From positions 276,627-340,626 of the forward strand of contig JBNKXG010000001.1 of NCBI GenBank assembly GCA_050300215.1: a stretch of 64,000 bases of DNA. The letters run 5' to 3'. How positions within the stretch are numbered: the first letter of the stretch is position 1; each line of letters starts with the position of its first letter. The notes below the pieces were generated by a model. It was not told the origin of the DNA, made no database searches, and saw only the letters and a program-made list of their open reading frames with translations. The position numbers and the translations under genes were made by a program. The stretch comes from Opitutaceae bacterium. GTDB lineage: Bacteria > Verrucomicrobiota > Verrucomicrobiia > Opitutales > Opitutaceae. Of the stretch, positions 18,904-57,245 are shown one piece after another.

Positions 18904-18997
18904 GGGATCTTGCAGCGCGGTCGCGGTGGGGGAGGCCGTGCCGTTTGGGTTTGGGATCTTGCAGCGCGGTCGCGGGCTGAAGCTCCGCGCTACGGGA
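18904..18997. repeat. Tandem partial plus full copy of the REP-like element (GGGATCTTGCAGCGCGGTCGCG...GGCTGAAGCTCCGCGCTACG)
   Basis: GGGATCTTGCAGCGCGGTCGCGG occurs at 18904-18926. It occurs again at 18953-18975, where it extends into GCTGAAGCTCCGCGCTACGGGA up to 18997. Confidence 0.7.
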
Positions 18998-23716: not shown

Positions 23717-23794
23717 TTTTCCATGTAGCCAACGCTTCCGCGAAACAGGTGTTCAGCGGACGGGTCAGTTAGGGGAGTGAGAGTACATCAAACG

Positions 23795-30280: not shown

Positions 30281-30310
30281 GCCCTGTAGTAGGCTTCTCA
30301 CTACAGAGCT

Positions 30311-35812: not shown

Positions 35813-35813
35813 A

Positions 35814-36710: not shown

Positions 36711-36768
36711 ACTCGAAGTATCGTGTTGAAATAATCCGAGAAACAGTCAGCCGTACGGTCAAAGCAAG

Positions 36769-37980: not shown

Positions 37981-38002
37981 TAGAAATTTCCAGCCCGAAC
38001 CC

Positions 38003-40967: not shown

Positions 40968-41337
40968 GCTAACTTCTTTAGTGTGGATCAGGTCTTCAGG
41001 CTCTATCGATACATAGGCTTGGGAGCTTAAGCTCGAAATGCCTTAGGTACTGCACATTCTATGCTTTTTTCCGATATTGAGGAGAAGTCCCTGTTCTTAT
41101 CTGGGGAAGATCTCTCGGTCCTAAACTGGGGCGATGCTTGTTCGTTGTTATGCCGACTTTTTCCGCGAAGCGATTCGAAGAGTTTTCAGTTAGTTCCTGG
41201 AAGGATGCTGGGATGGCATAGGCTCGAGCGCGGCGAAGCGGGCTTGGTCAAGAAGGCCAAGCACCATGCTACAAGCGTGGTTCGCTCGCTTTTGATTAAT
41301 GGCCTTATGGAAGGCCTCGGAGTTGACCGGAGTCCGT

Positions 41338-41559
41338 CTAGCGCAGCCAGACTTGACGCGAGCGGGGGTTGCCCGAGCATTCGAAGTCGAGTCCTTCTTC
41401 GTCGAGGAATTCTTCGAGCTCAGAGACGGAAAAATCGTAGCCATCCTCTTTGGCGGCTGCGACGAATTTTTCTTTCGTTTCGATGACGTTGTACTTCGCT
41501 CGGAGAACCTTGTCGGAACCGCCAGCAAGCAGGAGTTTTTCTACGCTTTCTTTTGACAT
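41338..41559 (-). CDS. Nif11-like domain small protein (possible leader-peptide-type precursor)
   Basis: 73-aa protein: MSKESVEKLLLAGGSDKVLRAKYNVIETKEKFVAAAKEDGYDFSVSELEEFLDEEG-LDFECSGNPRSRQVWLR. The first ~55 aa follow the Nif11 pattern (helical, ...AAKEDGYDFS..EL). Codon usage resembles its neighbours. Confidence 0.6.
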   Translation of the reverse strand: MSKESVEKLLLAGGSDKVLRAKYNVIETKEKFVAAAKEDGYDFSVSELEEFLDEEGLDFECSGNPRSRQVWLR

Positions 41560-41711
41560 GATTTGCTTGAGTTTGAAGCAAACCGGGAAGCAGCGCGTGT
41601 ACCACTCCTAGCGTTTGATCGAATCAGAGCAGCAGTAATTACTCCACTTTATGGATACGATAAGAGTGGTCGGTTGCCGTTTTAGGGGCTATATTTTCGG
41701 GCGAGCAGTGC

Positions 41712-43502
41712 TTAAAGCGTAGCGATGTAGTTTCGCCAGTTGCCGTACTGCGTGACCTCGGTCGCTTCTGCGGTGGCGTAGGTTTCGCAGGAGAAGCCTT
41801 TGACGTGGGTGCCGTCGGCGAGCTCGACGTTGGCGATACCGAGAGGGGCGAGAATCTGGGCGACAAAGGCGGCCCATTGGGATTTGGGCAGATCCCAAAT
41901 CTCCAGTTCGATAGTGGCGCCGTTTTGTGAATCGCGGATCATGCCGGGCTTGGGAGGCGTGGTGCCCGGGAGGGCGAAGAGTCGATAGTGCGGGCTGGTG
42001 GCGGCAGTTCGATTAAAGGTGGCCCCGAGCTCGGTGAGCTGGTGGTTGAGGGGGAGGCCGCTCATGTGGGCGCCGCAGACGGCGATGGGAAGGGAGTCGT
42101 AGGTGGTGGGCTGGAGCTTGGCGTAGACTGTGTGTTCGGTAGCTCCGAGGGGGAGATCGCTGGCCTTTTGTAGTTGGTTGGCGATGACGAGAAGCTTTTC
42201 GTCGTGGAAGGCGGGAGCGATGAGGGTGATGCCGAAAGGCATCTTTTTCGGAGTGAAACCTGTAGGGACCGCGATGGAGGCGAGGTCGAGCAGGTTCATG
42301 AAGTTGGTATAGTATCCGAGGTTTGAATTCAGCTGGATGGGATTGGCCTCGACTTCGGCGATGGTGTAGTGGGTGCCGGCAGTGGGTGTTGCGAGGAAGT
42401 CGACCGAGTCCCAAAGGGGTAGTGTCTCCTGGCGGAAGGCTTGCAGTTTGTAGGAGGCGTCGAAGGCGTCTACCGCGGTGCCGTCGATGCCTTTCTCGAT
42501 GATGGCGCGGGTGACGGGGTGGAGGCTATCAGGCGCTTCTTTGATGAGCTCTTGGATGGCCCAGTAGCGCTCGGCAACCCATGGACCTTCGTAGAGGAGG
42601 CGGGCGGCGGCGAGGAAGGGAGAGAAGTCGATAACTTGGCGCTTGAAGCCGAGGGACTCGAGGCGCTCAAGGGATTTGAGGTAGAGATCGAGGTAGGCTT
42701 CGTCGCCGAAGAATTGGAGTTGCTCCGGTGAAGGCACCCCGAAAGTCATGCCTGGGCGATAGGTGCGGCGCGGTGTATCGAGATTTTGGGGAGTGTGACG
42801 CGAATAGGCGTCGGAAGCGTCGAAGCCTTGGGCGATGCGGAGAGCGCTTTGGGCGTCGGCGGCGTTGAGGGCGAAGATGGAAATGCAGTCCAGCGACTTG
42901 CAGGCGGGGACGAGGCCGGAATTGCTGAGCAGACCGCGGGATGGCTTGAGGCCGACGAGGTTGTTGAAACAAGCCGGGACGCGACCGGAGCCAGCAGTGT
43001 CGGTGCCGAGCGAGAAGGAAACTTGTCCAAGGGCAACGGATACGGCGGAGCCGGAGCTGGAGCCGCCGGGGATGTACTCTGGGTTGAAGGCGTTGCCGGG
43101 AACTCCGTAGGGAGAGCGGACGCCGACGAGCCCGGTGGCGAATTGGTCAAGATTGGTTTTACCGATAGGAATAGCTCCGGCGGCGCGAAGCTGGGCGACT
43201 ACGGTGGCGTCGGATTTGGCGAAATAGCGAAAGTCAGGACAAGCGGCGGTGGTGGGAAGGTTGGCGACGTCGATATTGTCTTTGACGGCGAAGGGGATGC
43301 CGTAGAGCGGGAGTTCCGCGGGGTTCTTGCTTTCGAGCTCGGCGGCTTGGGCGAGGAGGCGTTCAGCCGAGTCAACGCATATCCAGATTTTGGAGTCGCC
43401 TGATTCGATGCGGTCGAGGGTCTCGCGGATGATGTCGGTGGGCGTGAAATCTCCAGCAATGTAGCCTTGGCGGAGGGTGGTAATGTCGAAAGAGAGAGTC
43501 AT
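41712..43502 (-). CDS. Allophanate hydrolase (amidase signature family plus C-terminal AtzF-type domain)
   Basis: 596 aa with the amidase signature GGSSSGSAVSVALG and a conserved KDNIDV. The C-terminal ~120 aa is typical of allophanate hydrolases. It lies next to the urea carboxylase gene. Confidence 0.9.
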   Translation of the reverse strand: MTLSFDITTLRQGYIAGDFTPTDIIRETLDRIESGDSKIWICVDSAERLLAQAAELESKNPAELPLYGIPFAVKDNIDVANLPTTAACPDFRYFAKSDATVVAQLRAAGAIPIGKTNLDQFATGLVGVRSPYGVPGNAFNPEYIPGGSSSGSAVSVALGQVSFSLGTDTAGSGRVPACFNNLVGLKPSRGLLSNSGLVPACKSLDCISIFALNAADAQSALRIAQGFDASDAYSRHTPQNLDTPRRTYRPGMTFGVPSPEQLQFFGDEAYLDLYLKSLERLESLGFKRQVIDFSPFLAAARLLYEGPWVAERYWAIQELIKEAPDSLHPVTRAIIEKGIDGTAVDAFDASYKLQAFRQETLPLWDSVDFLATPTAGTHYTIAEVEANPIQLNSNLGYYTNFMNLLDLASIAVPTGFTPKKMPFGITLIAPAFHDEKLLVIANQLQKASDLPLGATEHTVYAKLQPTTYDSLPIAVCGAHMSGLPLNHQLTELGATFNRTAATSPHYRLFALPGTTPPKPGMIRDSQNGATIELEIWDLPKSQWAAFVAQILAPLGIANVELADGTHVKGFSCETYATAEATEVTQYGNWRNYIATL

Positions 43503-43508
43503 GTGTTA

Positions 43509-43787
43509 TTTGCCCACGAAGGACACGAAGTTCACTAAATCGGGAATGGATTTGGGATGAATGGGTTGCTCTTTTTTTTACCGCAGATGGACGCAGATGG
43601 GGAGGCTTGTGTTTGGTGGCGGTTGTGGGATTGCTCTGATGAGCAAGGTAGCGTGTTGTTGGGTTGTGTTTTTTTGCCTGTGACGGGCACGAATGGGCAC
43701 TAATTGATTTTAAAAGTATGAGTGAGGATTCGTGAGATTGGTGGGTTCACGAAGCTTTCGTTTTTCTTCGTGTACTTCGTGGGCAAA
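43509..43787. repeat. About 280-nt intergenic block bounded by 22-nt inverted repeats (MITE-like)
   Basis: TTTGCCCACGAAGGACACGAAG (43509-43530) pairs with CTTCGTGTACTTCGTGGGCAAA (43766-43787), matching at 21 of 22 positions. The block also contains the 85-nt repeat at 43563-43648. Confidence 0.45.
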
Positions 43788-43790
43788 AAA

Positions 43791-46700
43791 TTACGTTCTA
43801 AGAATTACTAGGTTTTGGCCTTTGTTGGAGGGGGATCCTTCTTGGGTGAGGAGTTGTTCGATGGTGCCGTCGGCGGGGGCGTTGATGTTGATTTCCATCT
43901 TCATGGATTCGACTATGAGGAGTACGTCGCCCTTTTTGACGGTGTCGCCTTCTTGTACGCAGATTTTCCATACGCTGCCGGGGACGTGGCTTTGGATGGC
44001 GCGGCAACCTTCGGGAATTTCGTTTTCTTCGATGGCTCCGCTAGAGAGTTCCTCGGCGACGTAGGTGGCTTGACCGGTTTCGATCCAGCGTTGGCGTTCG
44101 GCGTCGAAGGAGGCTTGTTGGTGGTCCTTGAAGGTCTTGATGTCTGCTTCGTTGTCCGAGAGAAACTTGTTGTACTCGGCGAGATCGAAGGTGGATTCTT
44201 CGACGCGGAGCTGGAAGCGGCCATGGACGAAGTCTTCGCGCATGGTGAGGAGCTCTTCTGAGGAGACTTCGTAGAAGCGGATTTGGTCGAAGAAGCGCAG
44301 GAGCCAGGGCTTTCCTTCCTTGAAGTCTTTGGTTTGCTTGTAGCGGTTCCACATTTGCACGGTTCTGCCGACGAACTGGTAGCCACCGGGGCCTTCCATG
44401 CCGTAGACGCAGAGGTAGGCACCGCCGATACCGACTGCGTTCTCCGGAGTCCAGGTGCGGGCGGGATTGTACTTTGTAGTGACGAGGCGGTGACGCGGAT
44501 CGACGGGGGTGGCGACGGGAGCGCCGAGGTAGACGTCGCCGAGGCCCATGACGAGGTAGGAGGCGTTGAAGAGGATGTCCTTGACGTCCTGGATCGAATC
44601 GAGGCCGTTGATACGGCGGATGAATTCGATGTTTGATGGGCACCACGGAGCGTTTTTGCGCACGGACTCGTATTTTTGGATAGCGAGCTGGGTGGCGGCG
44701 TCGTCCCATGAAAGCGGAAGGTAGACGGTGCGAGTGGGCACCTTCATCTCGGTTATGGCAGGGAGCTCGTCTTCGATTTGCTTGAGGCGGTCGACGAGGG
44801 TGTCGAGCGGGAGCTGCAAGCTTTGGTAGTGGATCTGAAGAGAGCGGATGCCGGGAGTGAGTTCTTGGATACCGGGAATGTTGGCGGACCGGACGGCTTC
44901 CATGAGAGCGTGAGCTCGGAAGCGGAGGTTGAGGTCGAGCTTCATTTCTCCGTATTCGACGAGCAGATACGCGTCGCCGGCGCGGCGGTAGGTGACGGCG
45001 GGGCGGTCGAGGATGGGCTGTTCTTCGATTTGTTCGAGGATGGCGTCATTTAGGCCGAAGCGCGACGCAAGGTCGCTTCCCACGGGAGAGGACGAATCGG
45101 AGAAAACTGTCTCTTGGGCGGCTTCGAGTTTGGTGGCGGTGCTTTGGTCGACTTTGGTGAAGCGGATGGTGTCGCCGGGCTTGAGTTGGCCCATTATCCA
45201 GAGGTCGGCTTTGATGATGGTAGCGGGGCAGACAAAGCCGCCGAGACTGGGGCCGTCGGGGCCGAGGATGACGGGCATGTCGCCGGTGAAGTCGATCGCT
45301 CCGATGGCGTAGGCGTTGTCGTGGATATTGGATGGATGAAGGCCCGCTTCGCCGCCGTCGGTGCGGGCCCACTTTGGCTTGGGACCGATGAGGCGCACGC
45401 CGGTACGGGCGGAGTTGTAGTGCACCTCCCAGTTGGCGGCGAAGAAGGTTTCGATGTCTTCGTCTGTGAAAAAGTCGGGCGCTCCGTGCGGGCCGTAGAG
45501 GACGCGGATATTCCAGTTGTTGGTGTATTCGGGAAGCTGTGACGGGAGGACGGTGGAGAGAGATTGAAGCTCTTGCGCGGATCGCGACGCTAGGTCGCTT
45601 CCCACATGGTGGTGGAAGTGGAGGACGTCGCCGGGGAGGAGGGTGCGTCCGCAGTGTCCTCCGAATTGCCCGAGCGTGAAGGTGGATTTCGAATCGAGGT
45701 AGTCGGGAACGTCGAAGCCTCCTTGGATGGAAAGGTAGGCGCGGCAGCCGTGTTCGGTGATTTTTCCGCAGTCAAGCTCGTCGCCGACGGCGATGGGGAT
45801 GGGCTGCCAGAAGGGTACGGGTTCGCCGTTGAGAGTGGCGTTGGTGGTAGCTCCGGTTAGGACGATGGTGGTGGCGTGGTTGAAGGCCAAGGTAGGGCCT
45901 GTCACCGTAATTTCGATACCGGCAGCGGATTCGGGGTTGCCGAGGATCTTGTTGCCGAGACGGAAGGAGTAGGGATCGAAGGGGCCGGAGGGCGGGACGC
46001 CGATGTCCCAGTAGCCGACGCGTCCGGGATAGTCTTGGATGGTGGTTTGGGTTCCCGCTTCGAGTACGTCGATGGTGCGGGGATGGTAGACGAGGGAGTC
46101 GCAGAACTTGGTGGTGTGCTCGGCGTCGAGAAAAGCGGGAGCGGCGAGGATGTTCTCTAGGTATTCGAGGTTGGTTTCGATGCCTTCGACTCGAGAGTCG
46201 GCGAGGGCTGTAGCGAGCTTTTTGATCGCGTCGTTACGATCGCTGCCTTTGGCGATGACTTTGGAGAGCAGGGGATCGTAGAAGGCGGAGACTTCGGTTG
46301 AGGTTTCGATCCAGGAATCGACGCGTACGTCGGAGGGGAAGTGGACTTGGGTGAGGAGGCCGGATGAGGGTTGGAAGTCCTTATTTGGGTCTTCGGCGTA
46401 GACGCGGGCTTGGATGGCGGCTCCGGTAGGTTTGATGGAAAGCGTATCCAGATCTGGCATCTCGCCCGCGGCTTGCTTGATCATCCACTCGACGAGATCG
46501 ACTCCGGTGACTTCTTCGGTGACGCAGTGTTCGACTTGAAGGCGGGTATTGACTTCGAGGAAGTAGAACTGGGCGGCATCGACGTCGTAGACGAATTCGA
46601 CGGTGCCGGCAGAGCGGTAGTTGACGCCTTTGGCGAGGCGGACGGCGGTATCCAGAAGTTCCTGACGCTGGCTTTCGGAGAGGGCGGGAGCGGGGGTTTC

Positions 46701-47417
46701 TTCGATGACCTTTTGGTTGCGGCGCTGCACGGAGCAATCGCGTTCGCCGAGGGCGATGACTTTGCCTTGGCCGTCGCCGAAGATTTGGGCTTCAATGTGG
46801 CGGGCGCGTTGGACGAACTTTTCGAGGAAGATTCCGGCGTTGGCGAAATTGTTTTGTCCGAGGCGTTTTACGGATTCGTAGGCGTCGCGGAGTTCGATCT
46901 CGGTCCAGCAGAGGCGCATGCCGATGCCTCCGCCGCCGGCGGTGGATTTGAGCATGACTGGGTAGCCGATGCGAGTGGCTTCGGAGCAGGCTTCTTCGAG
47001 CGTATCCACGAGGTCGCTACCGGGGAGGAGCGGAGCGTCGTTGGCGACGGCGATTTCGCGAGCGGTATGCTTGAGGCCGAACTCGATCATTTGCTGAGGA
47101 GTTGGGCCGATGAAGGCGAGGCCTGCGGCTTCGACTTGGGTGGCGAAGTCGGCGTTTTCGGAGAGTAGGCCGTAGCCGGGATGGATGGCTTGGGCTCCGG
47201 TGGATTGGGCGGCGGCGAGGATGGCTGCGGTGTTCAGGTAGCTCTCCTTGACAGGGGCGGGGCCGAGGCGGATGGCTTCATCGGCGAGGTCGACGTGTTG
47301 GGCGAAGCGGTCGGCGTCGGAGTAGACGGCGACGGACTGGATGCCCATCTTGCGAAGGGTGCGGATGATGCGGCAGGCGATTTCGCCTCGGTTGGCTATG
47401 AGAACTTTGTTGAACAC
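43791..47417 (-). CDS. Biotin-dependent urea carboxylase family enzyme (urea or guanidine carboxylase)
   Basis: 1208 aa. The biotin carboxylase N-terminus reads [20 protein letters not shown]. The central region resembles allophanate-hydrolase subunits 1/2 (KipI/KipA-like carboxyltransferase domains). The C-terminal biotinyl motif is IVESMKMEI. Confidence 0.95.
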
Positions 47418-47449
47418 GGTGGTTTGGTGGAGAGTGATTGGGTTGTGCT

Positions 47450-47534
47450 TTTTTTACCGCAGATGGACGCAGATGGGGTGTTTTGTGTTTGGTGGCGGTG
47501 GTGGGATTGCTCTGATGAGCAAGGGGGCGGTTTT
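47450..47534. repeat. Second copy of the 85-nt repeat GGGTTG..TTTTTTACCGCAGATGGACGCAGATGGGG..GTGTTTGGTGGCGGTKGTGGGATTGCTCTGATGAGCAAGG
   Basis: Roughly 90% identical by eye to 43563-43648, in the same orientation. It includes the hairpin TTGCTC-tgat-GAGCAA. Confidence 0.7.
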
Positions 47535-47578
47535 TAGAATTCTTTGTGCCGTTTGCGGTAGAGTACTGTTTTGCTGGT

Positions 47579-48214
47579 TTAGTCCCAGATGAGGGCTTCG
47601 ACGGGGGTGGGATTGTAGGCGTTGCAGGGGTTGTTGAGCTGCGGGCAGTTGGAGATGAGGGCGATGACGTCCATGAGGGCGACCATCTCGACGTAGCGGC
47701 CGGGGGCGGAGATGCCGTCGGCGAAGCTGAGTCCGCCTTCGGGGGTGACGGGCACGTTCATGAAGAAGTTGATGTTGCAGGTGATGTCGCGTTTGCCGAG
47801 GTCGTCGGAGTGGTCGTGGAGGCCGCAGATGAAGGAGTCGCGGCAGGCGTGCATGGGCTCCTTTTCGATTGCGTAACGCATGGTGTTGGATTCGCGGGAG
47901 CAGGCGCCGCCGATGGTGTCGTGGCGTCCGCAGGTGTCGGCGGTGATCTCGAGGAGGGCGTTGCCTTGGCTCGACATGAGCTTGGTGCCGGTGGTGAGGT
48001 AGAGGGCTTGTTGACAGCGGATGGTGTCGCTGGCGGAGTAGCGGTCTACGGGGTCGTGGGCGTTGTAGAAGAGTGTATCCGCTGCTTGGTTACCTTCGAG
48101 GTCGAGGATGCGGAAGGTTTGGCCTTTTTTGATGACGTGGCTCCAGTGGTCGCCAGCTTTGATGACCTGGCGGTAGACGGCGTCGGCGGGATTGAGGGTG
48201 GATTCGGTTAGCAT
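47579..48214 (-). CDS. DUF1989 protein (urea-carboxylase-associated protein 2 / carboxyguanidine deiminase subunit-like)
   Basis: 211 aa and paralogous to the upstream 238-aa protein, sharing DTLFYNAHD.., DT.G.HDT..G.C. It lies immediately upstream of the carboxylase. Confidence 0.85.
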
Positions 48215-48226
48215 GGTGGAGAAATT

Positions 48227-48308
48227 GGTAATTATGAATTATGAAGGATGAATTATGAGGGGACTGGATCGGGGTGGTGTGGACGCGGGCTGAAGCACCG
48301 CGCTACGC
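48227..48308. repeat. AT-rich repeat AATTATGAATTATGAAGGATGAAT followed by a copy of the REP-like element
   Basis: GGTAATTATGAATTATGAAGGATGAATTATGAGGGG lies at 48227-48262, and a related copy at 49037-49072. GGACGCGGGCTGAAGCACCGCGCTACGC lies at 48281-48308. Confidence 0.6.
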
Positions 48309-48314
48309 TTCTTG

Positions 48315-49031
48315 CTAGAAGCGGAGGGTGTTGTAGGTGATGGTGTTTTGGTAGGCTCGCTGGTTCTCGGAGCGGACTTGGAGGCTGGGATCGTCCGGGG
48401 CGACGGGCGCGGCTTCGGTGACGGTGAGCTGGATGGGTTTCGGGCTGTATTGGGGATTTGGATCGAAGGGGTGCGGGCAGGTGTTGAGGACGACGAGGGT
48501 GTCGAGCTCGAAGCGGAGCTCGACGTGGTCGCCTGCTTGGGAATGGTTTTCGACGTAGCTGAGCTTGCCGTCTTCGTCGGCGATCACTTTGGAGAACCAG
48601 TTGATGTTTGGTACGAGGTCGCGTTTGCCGAGGCCCCATTTGGTGAGCTCGATGAGGAAGCACTCTTGGGCGTTGCGGTAAAAGTCGTTGCGGAGGGTTT
48701 GGTAGTCGCCTTCGCCGTATTTGGATTTTACGGACGCAGCGTCGGAGGCGCCGCAGACGGTGTCGTGCCAGCCGCAGGTGTCGGCGGTGATGGAGGCGAA
48801 GAGACGGCCCATGTCGGAGTGTAGACAGTAGGGGGCCTTGAGGTGGAAGATGTATTGGCCTTTGAGAGTGTCGGGCATGTTGTAGCGCTCGTGCTTTTCG
48901 TAGGCGTTGTAGAGCAGCATGCCGACGTTGGCGCCGCCTTCGAGGTCGGTGAGGCGGAGGGTGCGGCCGCGCTTGATGACTTTGGACCACATGCCGGCTC
49001 CGGTGAGGGTTTCTTGATGGATGAGAGACAT
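48315..49031 (-). CDS. DUF1989 protein (urea-carboxylase-associated protein 1 / carboxyguanidine deiminase subunit-like)
   Basis: 238 aa and paralogous to 47579-48214. Its position is conserved in urea-carboxylase-region operons. Confidence 0.85.
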
Positions 49032-49036
49032 TTTTT

Positions 49037-49072
49037 GGAATTATGAATTATGAATTGTGAAGGATGAATGGG
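49037..49072. repeat. Second copy of the AT-rich repeat (GGAATTATGAATTATGAATTGTGAAGGATGAATGGG)
   Basis: It begins 6 nt upstream (in minus sense) of the start of the first DUF1989 gene. The copy at 48227-48262 sits 13 nt upstream of the second DUF1989 gene. Confidence 0.6.
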
Positions 49073-49074
49073 CG

Positions 49075-49521
49075 CTACTTTTGGTGGAGCGGGGGCATGA
49101 TGGTGGAGGAGAGGTTGAGCTTGCCGGTTTTGACGCCTTTGCAGGTGATGAGCTCGTTGGCAATGGCTCGTAGCTTTTGGGCGGGGCCCTGGACGACGAG
49201 GACTTCCATGATGTGATCGTCTTCGAGCTGGACGTGGAGGGAGCTGATGACTTCGGCGAGGTGCTTGCGCTGGATCTTGCTCAGGGTGCCTTGCAGGTTG
49301 TTGCGGCGGGTGCTGTAGAAGAGCGTGATGGTGCCGGCCATGACTTGCTCGTCCTCCTCGGCGCTGGCTTCGATTATCTCGCGGTTGAGAATCTCGGCGA
49401 TGGCTTGGGAGCGGTTGGCGAATCCACGCTGCTCCAGCACGCTGTCGAACTTGGCGAGCACGGAGCGCGGGATGGAGACACTGACGCGTTCTGCGGGATC
49501 TGTCATGTTTTCTTGATTCAT
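49075..49521 (-). CDS. NikR-family ribbon-helix-helix regulator with an ACT-like C-domain (nickel ligands mostly not conserved)
   Basis: The RHH domain reads RVSVSIPRSVLAKFDSVLEQRGFANRSQAIAEILNREI. The C-domain reads ...ITLFYSTRRNNLQGTLSKIQRKHLAEVISSLHVQLEDDHIMEVLVVQG.... An alternative start lies at 49506. Confidence 0.8.
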   Translation of the reverse strand: MNQENMTDPAERVSVSIPRSVLAKFDSVLEQRGFANRSQAIAEILNREIIEASAEEDEQVMAGTITLFYSTRRNNLQGTLSKIQRKHLAEVISSLHVQLEDDHIMEVLVVQGPAQKLRAIANELITCKGVKTGKLNLSSTIMPPLHQK

Positions 49522-49523
49522 AT

Positions 49524-49553
49524 AGTATTACGAATTTAGGAAAACGTAATACT
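49524..49553. promoter_or_regulatory. Perfect dyad AGTATTACG-N12-CGTAATACT, candidate operator of the NikR-like regulator
   Basis: 9-bp perfect inverted arms (49524-49532 and 49545-49553) lie between the GS-like stop (49589) and the regulator start (49521). Confidence 0.6.
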
Positions 49554-49588
49554 TTTGGTTCTGGTTAGGGCAAGCGTTTTTTGGAAAA

Positions 49589-50926
49589 TCAGTAGAGTCG
49601 AGCGTAGCGATCGATTTCCCACTGGCTGACGGTTTGGTGGTATTGGCGCCACTCTTCGCTTTTGTATTTTATGAACTCGTTGCGGAGGTCGGTGCCGAGG
49701 GTTTCTTCGACGAATGGATCGGCGGCAAAGGCGGCTACGGCTTCGTCGAGGGAGCGTGGGAGTTCGCAGATGCCGCGTGCGGCGAGTTGCTCGGGAGAGA
49801 GTTCGTAGAGGTTGTCCTCTTGGGCGTCGCCTGGGTCGAGGTTCTCTTTGATGCCTTGCAGGCCGGCGGCGATGGCGAGGGCGGCGGCGAGGTAGGGATT
49901 GCAAGCGGCGTCGGCGTTGCGGGATTCGACGCGTCCGCCTCCCATGGGTACGCGGAGGGAGTTCGTGCGGTTGTTGCTACCGTAGGAATTGAAGACGGGA
50001 GCCCAGGAGTAGTAGGACATGAGGCCTTTGCGGACGAGGCGCTTGTAGCTGTTGACGGTGGGGGCGAAGGCGGCGCAGAGGGCGGGGCCGTGCTTGAGGA
50101 TGCCGGCGCTGAATTGGTAGCCCAGTTTGGAGAGGCCGAGGCCGCGTGGATCGTCTTTGTCTTCGAAGAGGTTTTTGCCCGTTTTCGCGTCGGCGATGGA
50201 CATGTTGAAGTGGGCGCCGCTGCCGGTTTTGTTGGCGAAGGGCTTGGGCATGAAGGTAGCGACGAGGCCTTCTTCCGCGGCGTATTGCTTGGCCATCATG
50301 CGGAAGAAGATGTAGCGGTCGCACATGGTGAGGGCGTCGGCGTACTTGAAGTCGAACTCGAACTGGGAGTTGGCGTCTTCGTGGTCGAGCGAGTAGAGAT
50401 CCCAGCCAAGGTCGTTGATGGTAGTGGATACCTTGTCGATCCAGGTGTAGCGGTCCATGAAACGCTTCACGTCGTAGCAGGACTTCTCGAGGTTGTCGTC
50501 GTCGTTGGGGATCTCGAGTTTGCCGTCTTCGGTGAGGCGAACGACAAAGAGTTCGCACTCGATGCCGAGGTTGACGGCGAATCCCATGGCTTCGGCTTCG
50601 GCGAGGACTTTTTTGAGGGCGACGCGGGTGTTCACTTCGTAGGGTTGCCCTTTGAAGGTGTTGTCGGCGGGCATCCAGGCGACTTCCGGCTGCCAAGGGA
50701 GTTGGATGATGTGATTGGTATCGGGGAGGGAGGCGATTTCGTCGTCGTTGGGCGACTGTCCGAGTCCGTCGAGGGCGTATCCTGTGTAGAGCTCGGATCC
50801 GGAGGCGAAGTGTTCGAAATGGTCGATGGGTACGAACTTGCCCTTGGGCACGCCGTGGATGTCAACGTAGGCGCCGACGCAGTATTTGACGCCCTGGGCC
50901 TTGAGTTTGTTTTTGAGTTCTTCCAT
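49589..50926 (-). CDS. Glutamine synthetase family protein, type III / GlnT-GmaS-like (445 aa)
   Basis: N-terminus [33 protein letters not shown]...[18 protein letters not shown]. The catalytic domain has [22 protein letters not shown] and [23 protein letters not shown]. The start is the ATG at 50926. The 976-aa ORF-track entry is a spurious upstream read-through. Confidence 0.88.
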
Positions 50927-50987
50927 CTGGTGTTTTGTTCGGTGCGGGGCGAGTTTTTTGCCGCTTGGGCGTTGTTGCTGTTGCGTG

Positions 50988-51014
50988 TGGCCGCTGAGAC
51001 AGCGGCCGCTACCT
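50988..51014. repeat. 27-nt hairpin repeat TGGCCGCTGRGACAGCGGCCGCTACCT (copy 1)
   Basis: GGCCGCTG-aga-CAGCGGCC stem-loop. A near-identical copy (1 mismatch) lies at 57312-57338. Confidence 0.6.
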
Positions 51015-51024
51015 AGGTGGTGGT

Positions 51025-51822
51025 TTAGTTGTAGAATCCATCGGGGGCTCCTGACCATTGGTGGGCGGGCAGGGGCGGCTGTTCGGTTTTTGCTTTCTCG
51101 AGCTTTTCGGCGATGGCGGTGGTCATTTTTTGGAAGAGACGCGCTCCGTCTTCGGCATTGCCTAGGGAAGGGGCTCCGGTGGTGCCGTTTAAGCTTGTCT
51201 GGGAAACTGGATACGTGAATACGAGGCCGTCGGTACGGTCTTCGTCGTCGGCGGAGTTGAAGGCGGCTTGGTCGACGGTGTCCGGGGCGAGGTGGAGCAT
51301 GAGGTCGCACTCGCCTTTGTTGGCGTGGAGGTCGGCGGCGTCTTGGGTGAAGTGGTCCTCGATTTCCGAGTCGATGAAGAAGGTGTTCAGGAAACCTACT
51401 TGGAGGCGTCCCATCAGTTCGATGCGTATTTGATCTACGGCTACACGTATGGGAGCGTCGTTGCCGGCATGGGCATTGACGATGTAGAGCTTTTTCCAGC
51501 CGGTGGCTTCCGCCCATTTGGCGAATTGGACGAGGGTGTCGATGAAGGTCTTGGGCGAGAGCGAGAAGGTGCCCGGCCATTTGGTGGTGTGGCCTCCCGA
51601 GGAGGTGTAGGGCATGACGGGCGCCATGGCGACGTCGGCCTGGGCGCAGGCGGCTTGGCAAAGGGCGGTGGCGATCGTTGTATCCGTATTTATGGGAAGA
51701 GCGGGGCCGTGTTGCTCCGTTGCGCCTAGTGGCAGGACCAAGAGCGAGCTGCGTTCCTGCAGCTGTTTGATCTGCGGCCATGTCAGTTGCTCGATGCAAA
51801 TGCCTGGAAGGGTGGAGCTCAT
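51025..51822 (-). CDS. Creatininase-family amidohydrolase
   Basis: [18 protein letters not shown] (compare the creatininase motif LPVGALEQHG...D), plus IVNAHAGN and LHANKGECD. 265 aa. Confidence 0.85.
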
Positions 51823-51828
51823 GGGCGA

Positions 51829-52728
51829 TTACTCGACGTCGTCCTTGACGTTGGTCATGCGAATGATGGGCAGGTCGTGGTCGGTCGCTTCTTCCTTGGG
51901 ATGGATGAGTTCTTCCAGCCGTTGTTTGGTGGCGAGGAACTCGGGGCTGAGCAGGTGCTCGGGGGTGCGCGGTCTCGGCACGGGGACTTCGATGAATTCC
52001 TGGATTTCGCCCGGATTCGCTTTCAGCACGAGAATGCGGTCGGACAAGTAGATGGCTTCGTCGAGGTCGTGGGTGACGAACATGATGGTGACGTCCACGT
52101 TTTGCCAAATCTGCAGGAGGTGGGCCTGCATTTGGTTGCGAGTGTGCGGATCGAGAGCGCCAAAGGGCTCGTCCATGAAGAGGATTTGCGGCTGGTTGGC
52201 GAGGGCTCGGGCGATGGCGACGCGTTGTTTCATGCCTCCTGAAAGCTGGCTCGGATAGGCTTCGGCGGCGTGGGAAAGGCCGACTAGGTCGATCCATTGC
52301 ATGGCTTCTTGTTCGACGGCACTGCCCGAGCGTCCGTTGACTTCGAGACCGAACATGACGTTCTTCTTGACGCTCAGCCAGGGGAACAAGGTGTAGCCCT
52401 GGAAAACCATTCCGCGGTCGGCGCCCGGGCCGGAAGGGGCGTTGCCGTCGAGGAGGAAGGAGCCGCCGGAGAGGGTTTCCAGTCCAGCCAGCATGCGGAT
52501 GAGGGTCGACTTGCCGCAACCCGAGGGGCCGATGACGGAAATGAACTCGCGGCGATGGACGTTGAAATCGATCGGGCTGAGTACGTTGACGGTCCCCTTG
52601 GCGGTGGTGAAGCTCTTGCTGATGCCTTTGACCTCTAACTTGATCGGGCGTTTGTAGATGTCGGCGAAGCGCGCTTGTACGGCTTCGCTCTGCTCCTTGT
52701 AACTCGGCAGCGTTATGGATTCGCTCAT
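51829..52728 (-). CDS. ABC transporter ATP-binding protein (NitT/TauT family)
   Basis: Walker [10 protein letters not shown], signature [15 protein letters not shown] and Walker [13 protein letters not shown]. Confidence 0.92.
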
Positions 52729-54116
52729 GATTTAGCCTTTCCGTTGAGAGGTTCGGCGTAGACTTTCCGGTCTACTAGCCAGAAGAGGAAGCGGCCGATG
52801 GGGCCGTGTTTCTTGTCGGATGCCTCGGGCGTCCAAGGGAAGAGGTACTTGCGCAGGGACGACAGGAATTGGTCGGTGACGAAGCCTGAAATGCCGATGA
52901 GGATGATGATCGGGAAAACGCTGTCGAAGTTGCGCCAGCGGCCTTGCGTTTCGAGGAATTCGGTGAGGCCGCTCTTAACGCCGATGAGCTCCGCGATTAC
53001 CAGCCAGGTCCAGGCCCAGCCCAGGAGGATGCGGAGGTCGTTGAAGAGATTTGGCGTGATGCCCGGCAGGATGACGCGGCGGATGAGGGTGAAGTTTTTC
53101 GCTCCGAGGGTTTGGGCCGCTTCGAGTAGGGAAGCGTCGAGTTGGCGAGTGGTATTGGCCACGACGAGCACGAGTTGGAAGAAGGTTCCCACGAAGACCA
53201 AGGCGATCTTCGGGGCGTCGTGAGCGAGGAAGACGGCGACCAGCAGGGTGCTGAACGCGGGCGCCGGCATGTAGCGGAAGAAGTCGATGAAGGGCTCGAA
53301 GAGTTTGGAGAAGAAGTCGAAGGTTCCGCAAAGCACGCCGATGGGGACGCCGATCACGGCCGCCAGGAGGAAGCCGAAGAAGACGATGCGCAGCGAATGC
53401 TTGTAGCGCTCGAACATGGACGGCTTGTCGTCGTCGGATGAAAAGGTGAAGTCTTGGAAGCCTTTGATCAGGACCTCGTGCGGAGCGGGCAGGTAGACGG
53501 GATTGGTGGAGACGCCTTGGGGCACGAGTTTTTCCAAGGGGATTTCCGGGAGCAGCTTGGAGTCGAAGGTCGGTGAGCGTTCCGACATGAGAGCCCAGTT
53601 GCGAGTGGCGATGCCCTGGTTTTCGTCGGTGAACTTCACCTTTTTGTAGGGCAATTTTCCTTCGGCGACTCCTTGCCAGACTTGGTAGAGCAAGGCGTCT
53701 TCCTTGGCCTCGTCGCGGGAGAGCCATTGATTGGCGATGGCGGCGTCCGAGATGTGCCGCATGATCTTGAGGTTGGCGCGGCGTACTGCGAAGCCGGAGC
53801 CTTTGATATTTCCCGATTTTCGTTCGGCCAGAATGGCGGCGTTGTCGGACTGGATGGCGGCGACGAACTCCGGGAAGTAGCTCTTGGAAAGGTGGTCGCC
53901 CGCGGTGTAGACGGTGGTCACATCCGAGCGGTCGGCTGAGATGTGCAGCTTGATGTCGGGATGCCAGATGAAACTCGAGTAGCTGACAAAGGCCCAAACG
54001 AGCAGCGGCAGTATAAAAGAGGAGCAGGTCAGGACGAGCCTTTGCTTCGCGTCAAGGTCTTTGCGGATGGCGAACCACGGCCTAGATGCCTTGTTGTTTT
54101 TGTTTGCTTGGGTCAT
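52725..54116 (-). CDS. ABC transporter permease (NitT/TauT family) with a ~190-aa N-terminal extracytoplasmic extension
   Basis: One N-terminal TM is followed by a long soluble segment and then a BPD-transport core (...[27 protein letters not shown]...). 463 aa. 4-nt overlap with the ATPase gene. Confidence 0.88.
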
Positions 54117-54219
54117 GTACGCGTTTCGGAAATCGGGCTCGAGTCAGAGGGTGGGCAACAAGAAGGCGGGCCGGGCTGGGCCCGCCTTCGATTGGTTGAA
54201 GCTTGTATCCAACGAACCG

Positions 54220-55212
54220 TTACTTAACGGACTTGGCGTATTCCAAGGTCAGGCTTGGATCGAGATACTGGGAGGTCTTCAGCGGCTCGGGATAGACGCC
54301 CATGGATACGTTGAACTCGTCTGAAATAGCGGTGGAACCGTAGACGGAACCAAATCCTTCGGCTTCCTTCCAGATTGGAAGCACCTCGTCGAGGCCCAAG
54401 ATGTAGGTGCCGCTGAGGAATGGCTCGTACTCTTCAGGGCTGATGGCTACGCGGCCTGAGAGGATTTCGAGCACTTCGTCGATGTTGTCCTCGTCCTTCA
54501 TGTAGTCGACGATTCGATACCAGACCTTGACGACTTTCATCCAATCGTCGCGGCGCTTTTCGAGACTTTCGGGATCGACGCTCAAAAGGTCGTAGATGAC
54601 GCCAGGAACGTCGGCGGAAGTGAGCACTGGCTTGGAATTGGCGATGGTCTTGAGGGCCTGTCCGGAGTTGGGCTGCCAAGCGCCGATGGCGTCGACGGCG
54701 CCCGATGCGAGTACCTGTGGCGTTTCGTTGGTTGGCGTGTTGACGATGGTAAATTCGGACGGGTCGATGCCGGCGGCTTCGGCTCCCTTTATGAGGAGAA
54801 GGTGTTCCACGAAACCCTCTTCGAGGCCGATCTTCTTGCCCTTGAGATCCTCGAGCGAGTTGAATCCGGGAGCGGCTACGATCATGTCGTTGCCGTTGGA
54901 GAAGTCGTTGATGATGATGCCGACGGAAGGCTTGCCGGTGCCGCCGGTGACGAGGGCGTCGCCGTTGGTCATGGTGACCGCGTCGATCAATCCTGCGGCG
55001 TAGGCGTCCATGGAAGCGACGTAGTCCATCCACTGGAAGTTAACTTCGACGCCTTCCTCTTCGAACCAGCCCTTTTGGATGCCGATTTCCCAGGCGACCC
55101 AGCCTGGCCAGTCGGAGTAGCCGATTTTAAGAGGTTCCGCTTGAGTGAAAGGCAGAGCGGCGAGGAGGGAGAGCCCGGCGAGGGCGCGGGTAGCGAGGCG
55201 AGCGAACTTCAT
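54220..55212 (-). CDS. ABC transporter substrate-binding protein (NMT1/THI5-like, urea-carboxylase-region type)
   Basis: Signal peptide [25 protein letters not shown], followed by [18 protein letters not shown]..., as in NitT/TauT-family binding proteins. Confidence 0.88.
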
Positions 55213-55242
55213 ATGATTTTGGTCGTTCAGGTTTTATTAAGT

Positions 55243-55268
55243 TAATACGAAAAAGAATAATCGTATTA
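55243..55268. promoter_or_regulatory. Dyad TAATACGA-N10-TCGTATTA (core TAATACG-N12-CGTATTA), second candidate operator
   Basis: It lies 31-56 nt upstream of the binding-protein start codon. It has the same core and spacing as the dyad at 49524-49553, giving the consensus TAWTACG-N12-CGTAWTA. Confidence 0.55.
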
Positions 55269-55623
55269 CGATTCTGTCCGACTTTAAGCATTGCGCGCGC
55301 CATCTGCCTGTAATGGTTAGAATCAGGCTTAAACGAGCAAAAATGCGCAGCGGTTTGCCGAATAGGCGTTGAGAAATGATCAAATGAGTCTCCGCTCTGA
55401 AAGCGTCACGAGCTGACGGGCGCGAACATCGAATGTGCTTCAGTATGCCAGCCTGCAGTCGCTGGAGCGGGGGGATCACGTCTTGGACGCGAAGGATATC
55501 GAGCTTGCGATCGTGCGGGAGTATGAGAAAGAAGGGCGACTGGGCTAGGGGTAGGTTAGTGTTTCGCTTGTTGATCAAAAATTCGCTTTAGTTGTCGCTG
55601 TTCAGTCTTACTTCCTAACTACC

Positions 55624-56046
55624 ATGAGTCATTCGCGTAAACTTGAAGAGCTGGCGCTGGCGCTCGATATGTCCAGTGGTTCCGAAGACATTCCTGTTTA
55701 TGTATGCAAGTCGACAGGTGAGATCGTTTACGATGCGGAAGAGTATTCCGGAGAACCGTGCCCCGTTGAAGACATTGAAAACGACAATCGCTACGTGTGC
55801 CTTCCGGACAAGCACGATTTCGATTTGGGAACGCGGCTGGTGTGGCGTTTCGTCGAGCAAGGAATACCGGCATTGGAGCCGAAAGTTCGAAGGATTTTTT
55901 CGAGTCGCGGAGCCTATCGAAGGTGGAAGGATTTTCTGGACGACAACGATTTGCTGGAGGCTTGGTACAATTTCGAAAAGACGGCCCAAAATGAGGCCTT
56001 GCTAGAATGGTGTCGCGCTGAGGGTATCCAAATCGAAGGCGACTAG
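55624..56046 (+). CDS. Hypothetical protein (possibly UPF0158-like)
   Basis: 140-aa acidic protein whose C-terminal part reads ...SSRGAYRRWKDFLDDNDLLEAWYNFEKTAQNEALLEWCRAEGI. The family assignment comes from memory of a similar motif and carries low certainty. Confidence 0.5.
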   Translation: MSHSRKLEELALALDMSSGSEDIPVYVCKSTGEIVYDAEEYSGEPCPVEDIENDNRYVCLPDKHDFDLGTRLVWRFVEQGIPALEPKVRRIFSSRGAYRRWKDFLDDNDLLEAWYNFEKTAQNEALLEWCRAEGIQIEGD

Positions 56047-56067
56047 GTCGTTTTTTGGATACGGATG

Positions 56068-56099
56068 CTCGTAGCGCGGAGCTTTAGCCCGCGTCCGCG
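56068..56099. repeat. Copy of the REP-like element (CTCGTAGCGCGGAGCTTTAGCCCGCGTCCGCG)
   Basis: Identical over 32 nt to 14759-14790. Confidence 0.7.
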
Positions 56100-56273
56100 T
56101 TAACCTCGGGTTTCCAGCCGTTGAGACAGGTTCTTTCCTTTGCGTTGGTCGTAGCGGCTGTGACGAGCGAAGTTATTCAGGTTGGCAGGGACATTGAAGT
56201 AGGATTCGTCCAGCACCACGCTTGTTGGGTGTATCCAAAAATTGAGACGCAACGTTATCGGGTTTTTGTTTTG

Positions 56274-57245
56274 TTACGTTTCTTTGTAGTTGAGCAGGTT
56301 TGGGTCGAGGAGAGCCGCTGCTGGCAGTCTTTTCTGGGCGAGGTCTGCTAACGCTTCGTCGACAAAGGGGTATCGAAAGAGGAAGCGTTGCTCGAGCAGT
56401 TTAGCGGGGATGGCGTAGCGGCTTTTTAGGGTAAGTTCCGTTTCGGTGCGCATGAGCCAGGCTGCTATTTCGAGGATGGGTTTTAGATGGGGAATGCCGA
56501 AGGTCCTGCCTACGCTTTCGCGTAGGATTTTCATGAATACGGTATTTCGTACTGGAGCGGGTGCAGTTACGTTTATGGCTCCGGCGAGTTCCTCGTTGTT
56601 TATGACGAATTCTATGGCTCGAACAAAATCTGTCTCGTGGATCCAGCTGACCATTTGTTGTCCGTGGCTGATCTTGCCGCCGAGCCCGAAGCGAGCGAGG
56701 CGGGCGAGGATCGGGTAGACGCTGTTTTTGCCGTGACCGAGTACCATGCTGGTACGCAGGGCGACGCGTCGGATCGATGGAAGGTCGGTGGCGAAGAAGG
56801 CGGCTTCCCAGGCTTTGCATACTTCGACGGAGAAACCGTGTCCGTGCTCGCCGGTGTAGTCGTCCATCGGCTTGTTCAAACTATGGTGGTAGGTGGTGGC
56901 GCTGGCGGCGTTGAGCCAAACGTTTGGGGGATTTTTTGCAGTTTGTAGGGCTTCAGCCAATACGCGGGTGGGGCGGGTTCGGCTTTCTAGGATTTTGTTT
57001 CGGTTTTGGCGATTGTAGCGGCAGTTGACCGATTTTCCGCAGAGGTTGACGAGGGCGGTGGCGTTTTCGAGTTCTGCGGTCCAGGGGCCAAGGGTTTCTC
57101 CCTCCCAAGCTACGAGGCGTCCGACTAGGGGGCGGGCATGCGTATCGCGAGTGAGGATGACGACTTGCCAGCTTTTTTGAGCGAAGTGGCGAGCGAGGGC
57201 TTGCCCGAGGAAACCGGTGCCACCGGCGATGATGAGCTTGTTCAT
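56274..57245 (-). CDS. TIGR01777-type NAD-dependent epimerase family protein (SDR39U1-like, C-terminal DUF1731)
   Basis: N-terminus MNKLIIAGGTGFLGQALARHF (Rossmann GxxGxxG), 323 aa. ATG at 57245 is preferred over the 22-codon extension. Confidence 0.85.
   Translation of the reverse strand: MNKLIIAGGTGFLGQALARHFAQKSWQVVILTRDTHARPLVGRLVAWEGETLGPWTAELENATALVNLCGKSVNCRYNRQNRNKILESRTRPTRVLAEALQTAKNPPNVWLNAASATTYHHSLNKPMDDYTGEHGHGFSVEVCKAWEAAFFATDLPSIRRVALRTSMVLGHGKNSVYPILARLARFGLGGKISHGQQMVSWIHETDFVRAIEFVINNEELAGAINVTAPAPVRNTVFMKILRESVGRTFGIPHLKPILEIAAWLMRTETELTLKSRYAIPAKLLEQRFLFRYPFVDEALADLAQKRLPAAALLDPNLLNYKET

Follow-up and report, generated by a model that had tools for sequence, protein, structure and literature searches.

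Guanidine carboxylase operons under riboswitch control have been described in Pseudomonas syringae, Raoultella terrigena, and Klebsiella michiganensis (Schneider 2020 and Sinn 2021, as summarized in PMC12186494 and PMC11410670); they combine an ATP-binding cassette (ABC) importer, a heteromeric DUF1989 deiminase, a carboxylase with an aspartate signature, and an allophanate hydrolase. We analyzed a stretch of 64,000 nucleotides from contig JBNKXG010000001.1 of an Opitutaceae bacterium (hereafter the window), in which ten minus-strand genes running in one direction, at 41712-55212, share all four of these components with the known operons and have regulatory elements at the same two positions. 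Unlike those operons, the locus has a NikR-family protein and two DNA dyads and no riboswitch, and its transporter operon also includes a creatininase-fold hydrolase, called CREA below, and a glutamate-amine ligase of the GmaS type with a glutamine synthetase (GS) fold, called GS-like below. We propose, with a probability of roughly 0.7 for the explanation as a whole, that a Pelagicoccus-like verrucomicrobium uses this locus as a regulon for guanidine assimilation, with a NikR-family regulator devoid of the nickel site, dyad operators, and an accessory enzyme pair.

Two other described systems come close to parts of this locus. The expanded operon of Vreelandella boliviensis, with MgdH and MgdL (PMC12508155), is likewise a guanidine carboxylase operon with two accessory enzymes under guanidine control, a control that in the window would be exerted by the protein regulator; the accessory enzymes of Vreelandella are a 2-oxoglutarate (2OG) dioxygenase and a lyase controlled by a riboswitch, whereas those of the window are an unrelated GS-fold ligase and a creatininase-fold hydrolase. 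The NikR repressors of E. coli, H. pylori, and P. horikoshii (1q5v, 2ca9, 2bj1) share with the window family the ribbon-helix-helix domain, the ACT-like NikR_C domain, and dyads with arms of 6-7 nt placed 12-16 nt apart, one clade of the family even using GTATGA-N16-TCATAC; they differ from it in that the family does not conserve the His3Cys site, never has the Cys, carries an extra C-terminal tail, and has guanidine catabolism instead of nickel uptake as its regulon. According to a 2025 review, riboswitches are the only known guanidine receptors, and guanidine-binding transcription factors are still to be found (PMC12186494). In a full-text literature search, we found no description of this cluster, of its dyad operators, or of a protein regulator for the guanidine carboxylase pathway, nor of the ligase/hydrolase pair as members of a guanidine regulon.

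The Guanidine Carboxylase Core

The initial annotation had assigned identities to ten co-directional minus-strand genes, and all ten hold when the open reading frame (ORF) listing and translations are compared with Pfam and NCBIfam, each of which confirms them (Table 1). The genes of the guanidine carboxylase pathway are all there: the carboxylase has the full architecture of biotin carboxylase, carboxyltransferase domains, and biotinyl carrier (TIGR02712, 1908 bits), and the DUF1989 pair and the allophanate hydrolase score over their NCBIfam cut-offs. Guanidine carboxylases are told from urea carboxylases by an Asp at the position of Kluyveromyces lactis 1584 together with an Asp, and not an Asn, at 1330 (Palatinszky et al. 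2024, PMC11410670). When aligned to the K. lactis urea amidolyase (5i8i/3va7), the window carboxylase has both of these published signature residues, as Asp709 and Asp961. In order to compare the locus with its relatives, one genome per species was scanned with a CREA alignment, which gave 80 related loci (given L numbers where needed), and the ten window proteins were then run against all loci with tblastn; Asp occupies the 1330 position in all of the aligned carboxylases of related loci (38/38). Judged by these residues, the window carboxylase is of the guanidine type, and because the Asp signature comes with the DUF1989 pair and the allophanate hydrolase, the core corresponds to the published guanidine carboxylase pathway, in agreement with the module of guanidine carboxylase, carboxyguanidine deiminase, and allophanate hydrolase that had been suggested at the outset.

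From family membership and the published pathway, guanidine would be imported by the ABC importer and converted to carboxyguanidine by the carboxylase; the DUF1989 pair would deiminate carboxyguanidine to allophanate, from which the allophanate hydrolase would free the remaining nitrogen as ammonia. The NitT/TauT-type importer is a probable guanidine importer; the top NCBIfam match of its binding protein is TIGR03427, the urea-carboxylase-region binding protein, with 142 bits under a cut-off of 334.

A NikR-like Regulator Without the Nickel Site

The NikR-like protein has a ribbon-helix-helix N-terminal domain and a NikR_C domain (PF08753, structure alignment), and its top PDB match is P. horikoshii NikR (102 bits, 129 residues aligned). 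Its homologs go by the name of nickel-responsive NikR in the databases, and its nearest named relatives belong to Pelagicoccus species (86-89% identity). The high-affinity nickel site consists of His78, His89, His91, and Cys97 in P. horikoshii, equivalent to H76', H87, H89, and C95 in E. coli. Three of these four ligands are replaced in the window protein, which reads Arg, His, Gln, Ile in place of H, H, H, C. The alignment of 40 cluster-linked orthologs tells the same story: the nickel-binding Cys is present in none of them, with Thr, Ile, Leu, Tyr, or Ser in its place, every His position is variable, and no alternative invariant set of His or Cys residues was found, while an additional C-terminal tail, (L/I)(I/M)PP(L/I)H, is shared among the orthologs. 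A true nickel sensor was rejected at this residue level, the Cys being absent in 40/40. Nor are the neighbors those of a regulon for nickel uptake or nickel enzymes; in every locus examined, they are the guanidine carboxylase cluster. A look-up from the NikR side found that the homologs adjoin carboxylase and hydrolase genes even where CREA and GS-like genes are missing (L086, L087). In L086 (10001-19067), a homolog that is 56% identical lies next to carboxylase, hydrolase, and ABC transporter genes, with neither a DUF1989 pair nor CREA/GS-like genes within 10 kb; the carboxylase still has the guanidine-type Asp.

Two dyads, O1 and O2 (Table 1), stand out in the window. The 26-bp pattern TAWTACG-N12-CGTAWTA has only these two matches in 64 kb when up to two mismatches are allowed, and both are exact, against 0.06 expected. 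O1 and O2 lie at the very positions that guanidine-I riboswitches hold in loci without NikR. Across 1.29 Mb of related loci, the pattern (≤2 mismatches) has 37 matches, and 26 of them are found 5' of the binding-protein gene at a distance of no more than 350 bp; 19 of these 26 belong to the 32 loci that have NikR and enough upstream sequence, and 7 to loci where the fetched DNA holds no nikR-like gene. The dyad is absent from all four loci in which a riboswitch precedes the binding-protein gene. The Luteolibacter/Akkermansiaceae clade has no TAWTACG dyad and carries instead GTRTGA-N16-TCAYAC 5' of the binding-protein gene and, in those of its loci that include nikR, also 5' of nikR, which is the two-operator layout of the window. 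GTATGA-N16-TCATAC is the classical NikR box of E. coli. The DNA-reading beta-strand of the protein changes along with the operator: in the alignment, R-x-S-x-S (ERVSVSIP in the window) goes with TAWTAC boxes and R-x-T-V-S with GTATGA boxes, the corresponding strand of E. coli NikR being R-V-T-I-T. That the NikR-like protein is the one that would read the dyads is suggested most strongly by this covariation of protein and operator. The dyad TATTAC-N14-GTAATA is found 5' of the binding-protein gene in four loci of the Hydrogenovibrio/Thiomicrorhabdus group (L044, L047, L052, L076) that have no NikR-like gene within 10 kb; one of the four, L047, has a guanidine-II riboswitch match as well (4922-4965, 38 bits).

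The layout that we propose has two transcription units, one running from the binding protein through permease, ATPase, and CREA to the GS-like gene, and the other from the nikR-like gene through the two DUF1989 genes and the carboxylase to the hydrolase. One 26-bp dyad stands ahead of each unit, and the NikR-like protein would bind both, probably as a repressor that its ligand sets free from the DNA.

Riboswitches Are Missing from the Window and Present in Relatives

At the Rfam gathering threshold, no RNA family of any kind, and hence no riboswitch, was found in the whole 64-kb window, and no relevant RNA family appeared in 41000-56500 at E≤10. A guanidine-I covariance model, built from the orthologous loci and run with filters off, reached at most 8.5 bits in the locus, compared with 87-121 bits for real ones. 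The initial impression that there is no recognizable riboswitch is thus confirmed by Rfam and by the custom model alike. Guanidine riboswitches often control this pathway, although they are not an obligatory part of it.

In the related loci, Rfam models were applied to 22 at gathering threshold and the custom guanidine-I model to all 84. Four loci (L032, L040, L073, L058) have a guanidine-I riboswitch directly 5' of the binding-protein gene, at 75-93 bits for a gathering score of 63; in L040, the aptamer ends about 75 nt ahead of the start codon. A second guanidine-I riboswitch sits between the GS-like gene and the DUF1989 genes in L032 and L040. There is no NikR-like gene in L032, L040, and L073; the contig of L058 stops within the GS-like gene, which leaves the presence of NikR undecided there. 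Conversely, Rfam found no riboswitch of any kind in nine sources with NikR (the window, L001, L005, L035, L039, L041, L045, L048, and L057). Three loci are hybrids: L038 and L043 have NikR together with a guanidine-I riboswitch on a divergent DUF1989 operon, and L051 has NikR together with a guanidine-II riboswitch before the carboxylase. The earlier proposal of a protein regulator where other loci have a riboswitch is, thus, supported, since the orthologous loci without NikR carry guanidine-I riboswitches at the same two positions.

Because guanidine-I riboswitches sit ahead of orthologous operons, free guanidine must switch on the transporter-CREA-GS operon in some bacteria. The sole guanidine-I riboswitch tested for methylguanidine binds guanidine and rejects methylguanidine (PMC12508155). 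Given that the His3Cys site is lost and that the protein and its operators occupy guanidine-I riboswitch positions, the effector of the NikR-like protein is most likely guanidine and not nickel. The protein is, therefore, a candidate guanidine-responsive regulator and, as such, a candidate for the first protein sensor of guanidine.

A Conserved Ten-Gene Block

The CREA homologs at 54-97% identity all come from Verrucomicrobiota. According to context look-ups in Lentimonas, Luteolibacter, and one metagenomic lineage, the transporter genes are followed by CREA and the GS-like gene, with the carboxylase module on their other side. The order that recurs is binding protein, permease, ATPase, CREA, GS-like, NikR-like, two DUF1989 proteins, carboxylase, and hydrolase. 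All ten genes in a single direction are found in Lentimonas (L001), Luteolibacter (L005), Methylobacillus flagellatus (L051), and Parasulfuritortus (L057). In Thalassolituus (L038) and Psychromonas (L043), the carboxylase module of the block points the other way, in divergent orientation; L038, a locus that stops about 1.3 kb past the carboxylase match, yielded no allophanate hydrolase gene. Halothiobacillus (L045) and Thiobacillus (L071) keep the same order as far as their fetched DNA reaches, which is up to the carboxylase. In Methylotenera, the block lacks the NikR-like gene, and so does a Tepidisphaeraceae locus (Planctomycetota) whose contig stops just beyond CREA. Overall, the block is whole in Verrucomicrobiota and in Gamma- and Betaproteobacteria and partial in Planctomycetota and Alphaproteobacteria. 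Of 85 loci, nearly all have CREA next to the GS-like gene; across phyla, GS-like proteins are 65-87% identical, which is unusually high, versus 39-77% for CREA.

The creatininase-like and GS-like genes had been singled out as lying outside the described module. They are indeed absent from the published module; they are not, however, unusual to this locus, as they belong to a widespread conserved block. The neighborhoods across phyla show them to be syntenic with carboxylase genes, so a lack of synteny in relatives, which would have spoken against their membership, is not observed. The cluster is thus no peculiarity of this genome; it represents a variant of the guanidine carboxylase regulon that is widespread and has gone undescribed.

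The closest relative, an Opitutaceae metagenome-assembled genome (MAG) (L033), has ATPase, NikR, DUF1989, carboxylase, and hydrolase sequences that are 82-97% identical to those of the window, with spacers at 96%; its CREA is just 42% identical and its GS-like protein 75% (window 49075-52728). As CREA and the GS-like protein diverge more than the other proteins compared, it seems that close relatives have swapped the middle part of the operon.

Five loci (L003, L009, L011, L029, and L060) have an optional set of genes between GS/CREA and the NikR/DUF1989 genes, namely a Rieske oxygenase alpha subunit, an FGE-sulfatase-like protein, a polysaccharide-deacetylase-family protein, and a further protein (about 280 aa) that Pfam matches weakly or not at all, sometimes with a short-chain dehydrogenase/reductase, an alpha/beta hydrolase, or a second ABC transporter in addition. 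This optional set may feed substituted guanidines into the pathway.

The Ligase and the Hydrolase

The top PDB match of the GS-like protein is 9qur, a glutamate--methylamine ligase (409 bits), with 7cql at 314 bits. It is about 50% identical to GmaS (7cql, 9qur; PMC7948447) and shares with it the Trp in the catalytic flap, the missing Asp50', and Lys30'. With Trp308 at the position of the catalytic flap Glu of glutamine synthetase and Thr48 at the ammonium position Asp50', it should not be an ammonia-using glutamine synthetase, and the possibility of a true glutamine synthetase was rejected on these two substitutions. The methylamine pocket of Rhodovulum GmaS is formed by Tyr147, Gln175, Asp177, Glu179, Glu186, Asn188, and Lys30' (PMC7948447). 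The Tyr, the Asp, both Glu, and Lys30' are kept in the window protein; unlike in GmaS, Ser179 replaces Gln175 and Asp192 replaces Asn188. Both replacements are invariant in more than 70 CREA-linked orthologs, divergent ones of 42-53% identity included. A column-by-column check covered the flap Trp, the lack of Asp50', and the conserved Asp177 and Glu186. In a library of representatives at 50% identity, the cluster-linked GS-like enzymes form one cluster, and the canonical GmaS representatives retain Gln and Asn. The partner is also a different one, as CREA stands in place of the N-methylglutamate synthase/dehydrogenase genes that accompany GmaS; no N-methylglutamate pathway genes occur within the cluster in any locus. 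By its sequence, the GS-like enzyme is of the GmaS type and represents a distinct subfamily with an invariant, altered amine pocket.

The binuclear site of creatininase includes Glu122, and creatinine is bound by Tyr121, Trp154, and Trp174. CREA retains equivalents of creatininase Glu34, His36, Asp45, His120, and His178 and has the fold of the creatininase/MftE/ArfB family (PF02633; 1j2t, 3no4). It differs from that family in having NAHAGN in place of NGHYEN, in which the metal ligand Glu122 becomes Gly; it also lacks Tyr121, and the tryptophans that bind creatinine have no aligned counterpart. It also scores below the creatininase equivalog cut-off (TIGR04448, 101 vs 235 bits) and below the MftE equivalog cut-off (NCBIfam). 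A true creatininase was rejected for these reasons, namely the score under the cut-off, the change of Glu122 to Gly, and the lack of the substrate-binding tryptophans; judged by its residues, CREA is not a creatininase. The founding member of its family cuts the acyl-guanidine bond of creatinine.

CREA and the GS-like ligase are conserved members of the guanidine regulon. As for what they do, their most likely role would be the ATP-dependent gamma-glutamylation, by the ligase, of guanidine or of a small cationic amine close to it, after which CREA would hydrolyze the conjugate, the resulting acylguanidine being expected to be far easier to hydrolyze than guanidine itself. In L054 and L023, the pair is joined by a class-I amidotransferase/PuuD-like gamma-glutamyl hydrolase, and several Verrucomicrobial variants add Rieske oxygenase, FGE-like, and deacetylase-family proteins. 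An actinobacterial MAG (L082, 8223-13890) has a guanidine-I riboswitch (74.9 bits) followed by genes for a 2OG-Fe(II) oxygenase, CREA, a frameshifted GS-like protein, an arginase-family protein, and a putative cyclase-family protein; a second guanidine-I riboswitch lies ahead of an ABC transporter, and there is no carboxylase nearby. From this arrangement, the pair also travels with a guanidine operon that is not of the carboxylase type. L082 was annotated by stop-to-stop segments and tblastn, greedy ORF calling being unreliable in the high-GC loci L053, L054, and L082.

Alternative Explanations

Current annotation would make the locus an ordinary urea amidolyase system, with urea carboxylase and allophanate hydrolase serving the use of urea, and the NCBIfam names do say urea carboxylase, urea amidolyase-associated proteins, and putative urea ABC binding protein. 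We consider this very improbable: the carboxylase has Asp where urea carboxylases have Asn, the DUF1989 pair is not required for urea, and orthologous loci carry guanidine-I and guanidine-II riboswitches. A genuine nickel sensor is a better-founded alternative, which we nevertheless hold to be quite unlikely. Such a protein would, when nickel is plentiful, repress the nickel-free, ATP-costly carboxylase route in favor of nickel enzymes (urease, guanidinase) and act as a nickel-sparing switch; the logic is biologically sensible, guanidinase and urease being nickel enzymes (PMC11410670). The window protein passes the NikR equivalog NF003381 (126 bits vs a cut-off of 105), its homologs are named NikR, one clade uses the classical box GTATGA-N16-TCATAC, and a few orthologs retain three His ligands. 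What speaks against it is the site itself, without Cys in 40/40 cluster-linked orthologs, reduced to R, H, Q, I in the window, and not replaced by another invariant His/Cys set, as well as the placement of protein and operators exactly at the guanidine-I riboswitch positions of the NikR-less loci. The initial annotation had suggested yet another idea, that the extra enzymes extend the pathway to a substituted or cyclic guanidino compound such as creatinine, creatine, or methylguanidine; in such a route, CREA would open or cleave the compound and the GmaS-like enzyme would capture the freed methylamine. Indeed, the GS-like protein is closest to a glutamate--methylamine ligase, expanded guanidine carboxylase operons that feed methylguanidine in are known (PMC12508155), and some variants of the cluster add Rieske or 2OG oxygenases and deacetylase-family or FGE-like proteins. 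We find it unlikely all the same, as CREA lacks creatininase hallmarks and stays under the equivalog cut-off, the GmaS amine pocket is altered at two positions in every linked ortholog, no N-methylglutamate pathway genes accompany the cluster, the pair is found in small-genome sulfur oxidizers, and it is placed under guanidine-I riboswitches, of which the tested case rejects methylguanidine (PMC12508155). A route for creatinine or cyclic guanidines is not supported, with CREA at 101 vs 235 bits and without Glu122 and the tryptophans and with the orthologous operon under guanidine-I riboswitches; methylamine capture from methylguanidine would fit the ligase family and would fit the altered pocket, the riboswitch specificity, and the absent N-methylglutamate genes less well.

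Several observations weigh against the guanidine regulon that we prefer. The related loci were seeded on CREA, so the counts hold within this sample and not among all guanidine carboxylase loci. The orthologs of L034, L035, L045, and L067 retain three of the four nickel ligands, which makes metal binding possible for them. Given the hybrid loci, with a riboswitch and NikR, the NikR-like protein could respond to some further signal, for instance an intermediate of the pathway or the nitrogen status. A sigma-70 consensus scan found no promoter-like match, and terminator matches were at chance level; the two-unit layout and the repressor mode are, thus, drawn from position only. Finally, should CREA cut the very bond that the ligase makes, gamma-glutamylation and hydrolysis could amount to a futile cycle. 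A more far-reaching version of our proposal would have the NikR-family protein as the first guanidine-sensing transcription factor, repeatedly swapped with guanidine-I riboswitches, and the pair as a third, acyl-activation chemistry of guanidine alongside the carboxylase and guanidinase routes, in which the ligase makes an acylguanidine that CREA cleaves or deiminates; we put this forward tentatively, as a possibility with the odds against it.

With the guanidine regulon as the preferred explanation, the locus offers a concrete candidate for a guanidine sensor, with a defined regulator, two defined operators, and natural controls in those orthologous loci that rely on a riboswitch for this task. 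Two conserved enzymes join the guanidine regulon, in carriers that are marine Verrucomicrobiota, methylotrophs, and sulfur oxidizers, which suggests a missing step in the environmental cycling of guanidine nitrogen. One also has to keep in mind that four products appear to be systematically misannotated, under the names “NikR”, “type III glutamine synthetase”, “creatininase”, and “urea carboxylase”.

Features of the Locus and Neighboring Genes

Table 1. Coordinates of the genes, residues, and DNA elements of the guanidine locus in the window.
Feature	Position	Strand	Evidence or remark
Allophanate hydrolase	41712..43502	-	TIGR02713, 789 bits (cut-off 511); PF01425 and PF21986 also match
81-nt intergenic repeat, copy 1	43573..43653	.	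93% identical to copy 2
Biotin-dependent carboxylase, 1208 aa	43791..47417	-	TIGR02712, 1908 bits; all Pfam domains found
Asp961 codon	44535..44537	-	Equivalent to K. lactis Asp1584; GLGDV motif kept
Asp709 codon	45291..45293	-	Equivalent to K. lactis Asn1330; separates guanidine from urea carboxylases; GAIDFTGD vs K. lactis GAINFTGD
81-nt intergenic repeat, copy 2	47449..47529	.	93% identical to copy 1
DUF1989 paralog, UAAP2 type; predicted carboxyguanidine deiminase subunit	47579..48214	-	TIGR03424, 328 bits (cut-off 285)
DUF1989 paralog, UAAP1 type; predicted carboxyguanidine deiminase subunit	48315..49031	-	TIGR03425, 335 bits (cut-off 206)
NikR-family ribbon-helix-helix regulator, nickel site absent	49075..49521	-	PF08753, 80 bits; NF003381, 126 bits (cut-off 105)
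O2, TATTACG-N12-CGTAATA on the + strand	49526..49551	.	Exact match; 4 nt 5' of nikR-like start codon; kept in L033
GS-like, GmaS-type glutamate-amine ligase, distinct subfamily	49589..50926	-	TIGR03105, 642 bits
Creatininase-fold metal amidohydrolase (CREA)	51025..51822	-	PF02633, 202 bits
ABC ATPase	51829..52728	-	PF00005 (ABC_tran); NitT/TauT-type NCBIfam matches
ABC permease, 463 aa	52725..54116	-	PF00528 (BPD_transp_1), residues 256-418
Permease extra hydrophilic loop, residues ~52-238, between first transmembrane helix and core	53403..53963	-	Hydropathy; no Pfam match
Periplasmic binding protein, NitT/TauT-type ABC importer	54220..55212	-	NMT1 family, PF09084/PF13379
O1, TAATACG-N12-CGTATTA	55243..55268	.	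Exact match to TAWTACG-N12-CGTAWTA; 31-56 nt 5' of binding-protein start codon

The large extra domain noticed early on in the permease is real; it is lineage-specific, and it lies outside the conserved system. According to hydropathy and Pfam, one transmembrane helix (about residues 26-51) is followed by about 187 hydrophilic residues and then by the core. Verrucomicrobial orthologs of 461 and 454 aa have the loop, and the shorter ones of L003 (348 aa) and L086 (338 aa) are without it. The same holds for the repeats reported in the spacers, which are present, lineage-specific, and no part of the conserved system. The 81-nt repeat is common to the closest relative, L033, only; a role as a novel cis-regulatory RNA 5' of the carboxylase and hydrolase genes was considered and rejected, since the repeat occurs besides in L033 alone and corresponds to no Rfam family. 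A 25-nt inverted repeat flanks the 288-bp spacer between carboxylase and hydrolase. A 27-nt element resembling repetitive extragenic palindromes, GGACGCGGGCTRAAGCWCCGCGCTACG, has four copies in both orientations, at 14761-14787, 18968-18994, 48281-48307, and 56070-56096, the third of which occupies part of the spacer that separates the two DUF1989 genes.

The true start of the GS-like gene is inside a spurious ORF of 976 aa (49589-52519). Long spurious ORFs of this kind are explained by the strong strand composition bias of the region: with 2-kb bins, the plus strand has a positive GC skew throughout the window except in two bins (about -0.02 at 12-14 kb and 20-22 kb), and the skew amounts to 0.21-0.33 across the minus-strand guanidine locus, with the maximum of the window at 42000-54000.

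Elsewhere in the window, one plus-strand ORF at 12603-13940 combines LpxC (PF03331) with a FabA/FabZ-like dehydratase domain (PF07977), and co-directional plus-strand genes at 21914-39250 lead up to FtsZ (37889-39250); this run looks like a division and cell wall (dcw) cluster, FtsZ being the gene that was checked. Two genes code for methyl-accepting chemotaxis proteins, at 16494-18185 (+) and 39396-40967 (-); the latter encodes a four-helix-bundle sensor and is found on the same strand as the allophanate hydrolase gene, 744 bp downstream of it.

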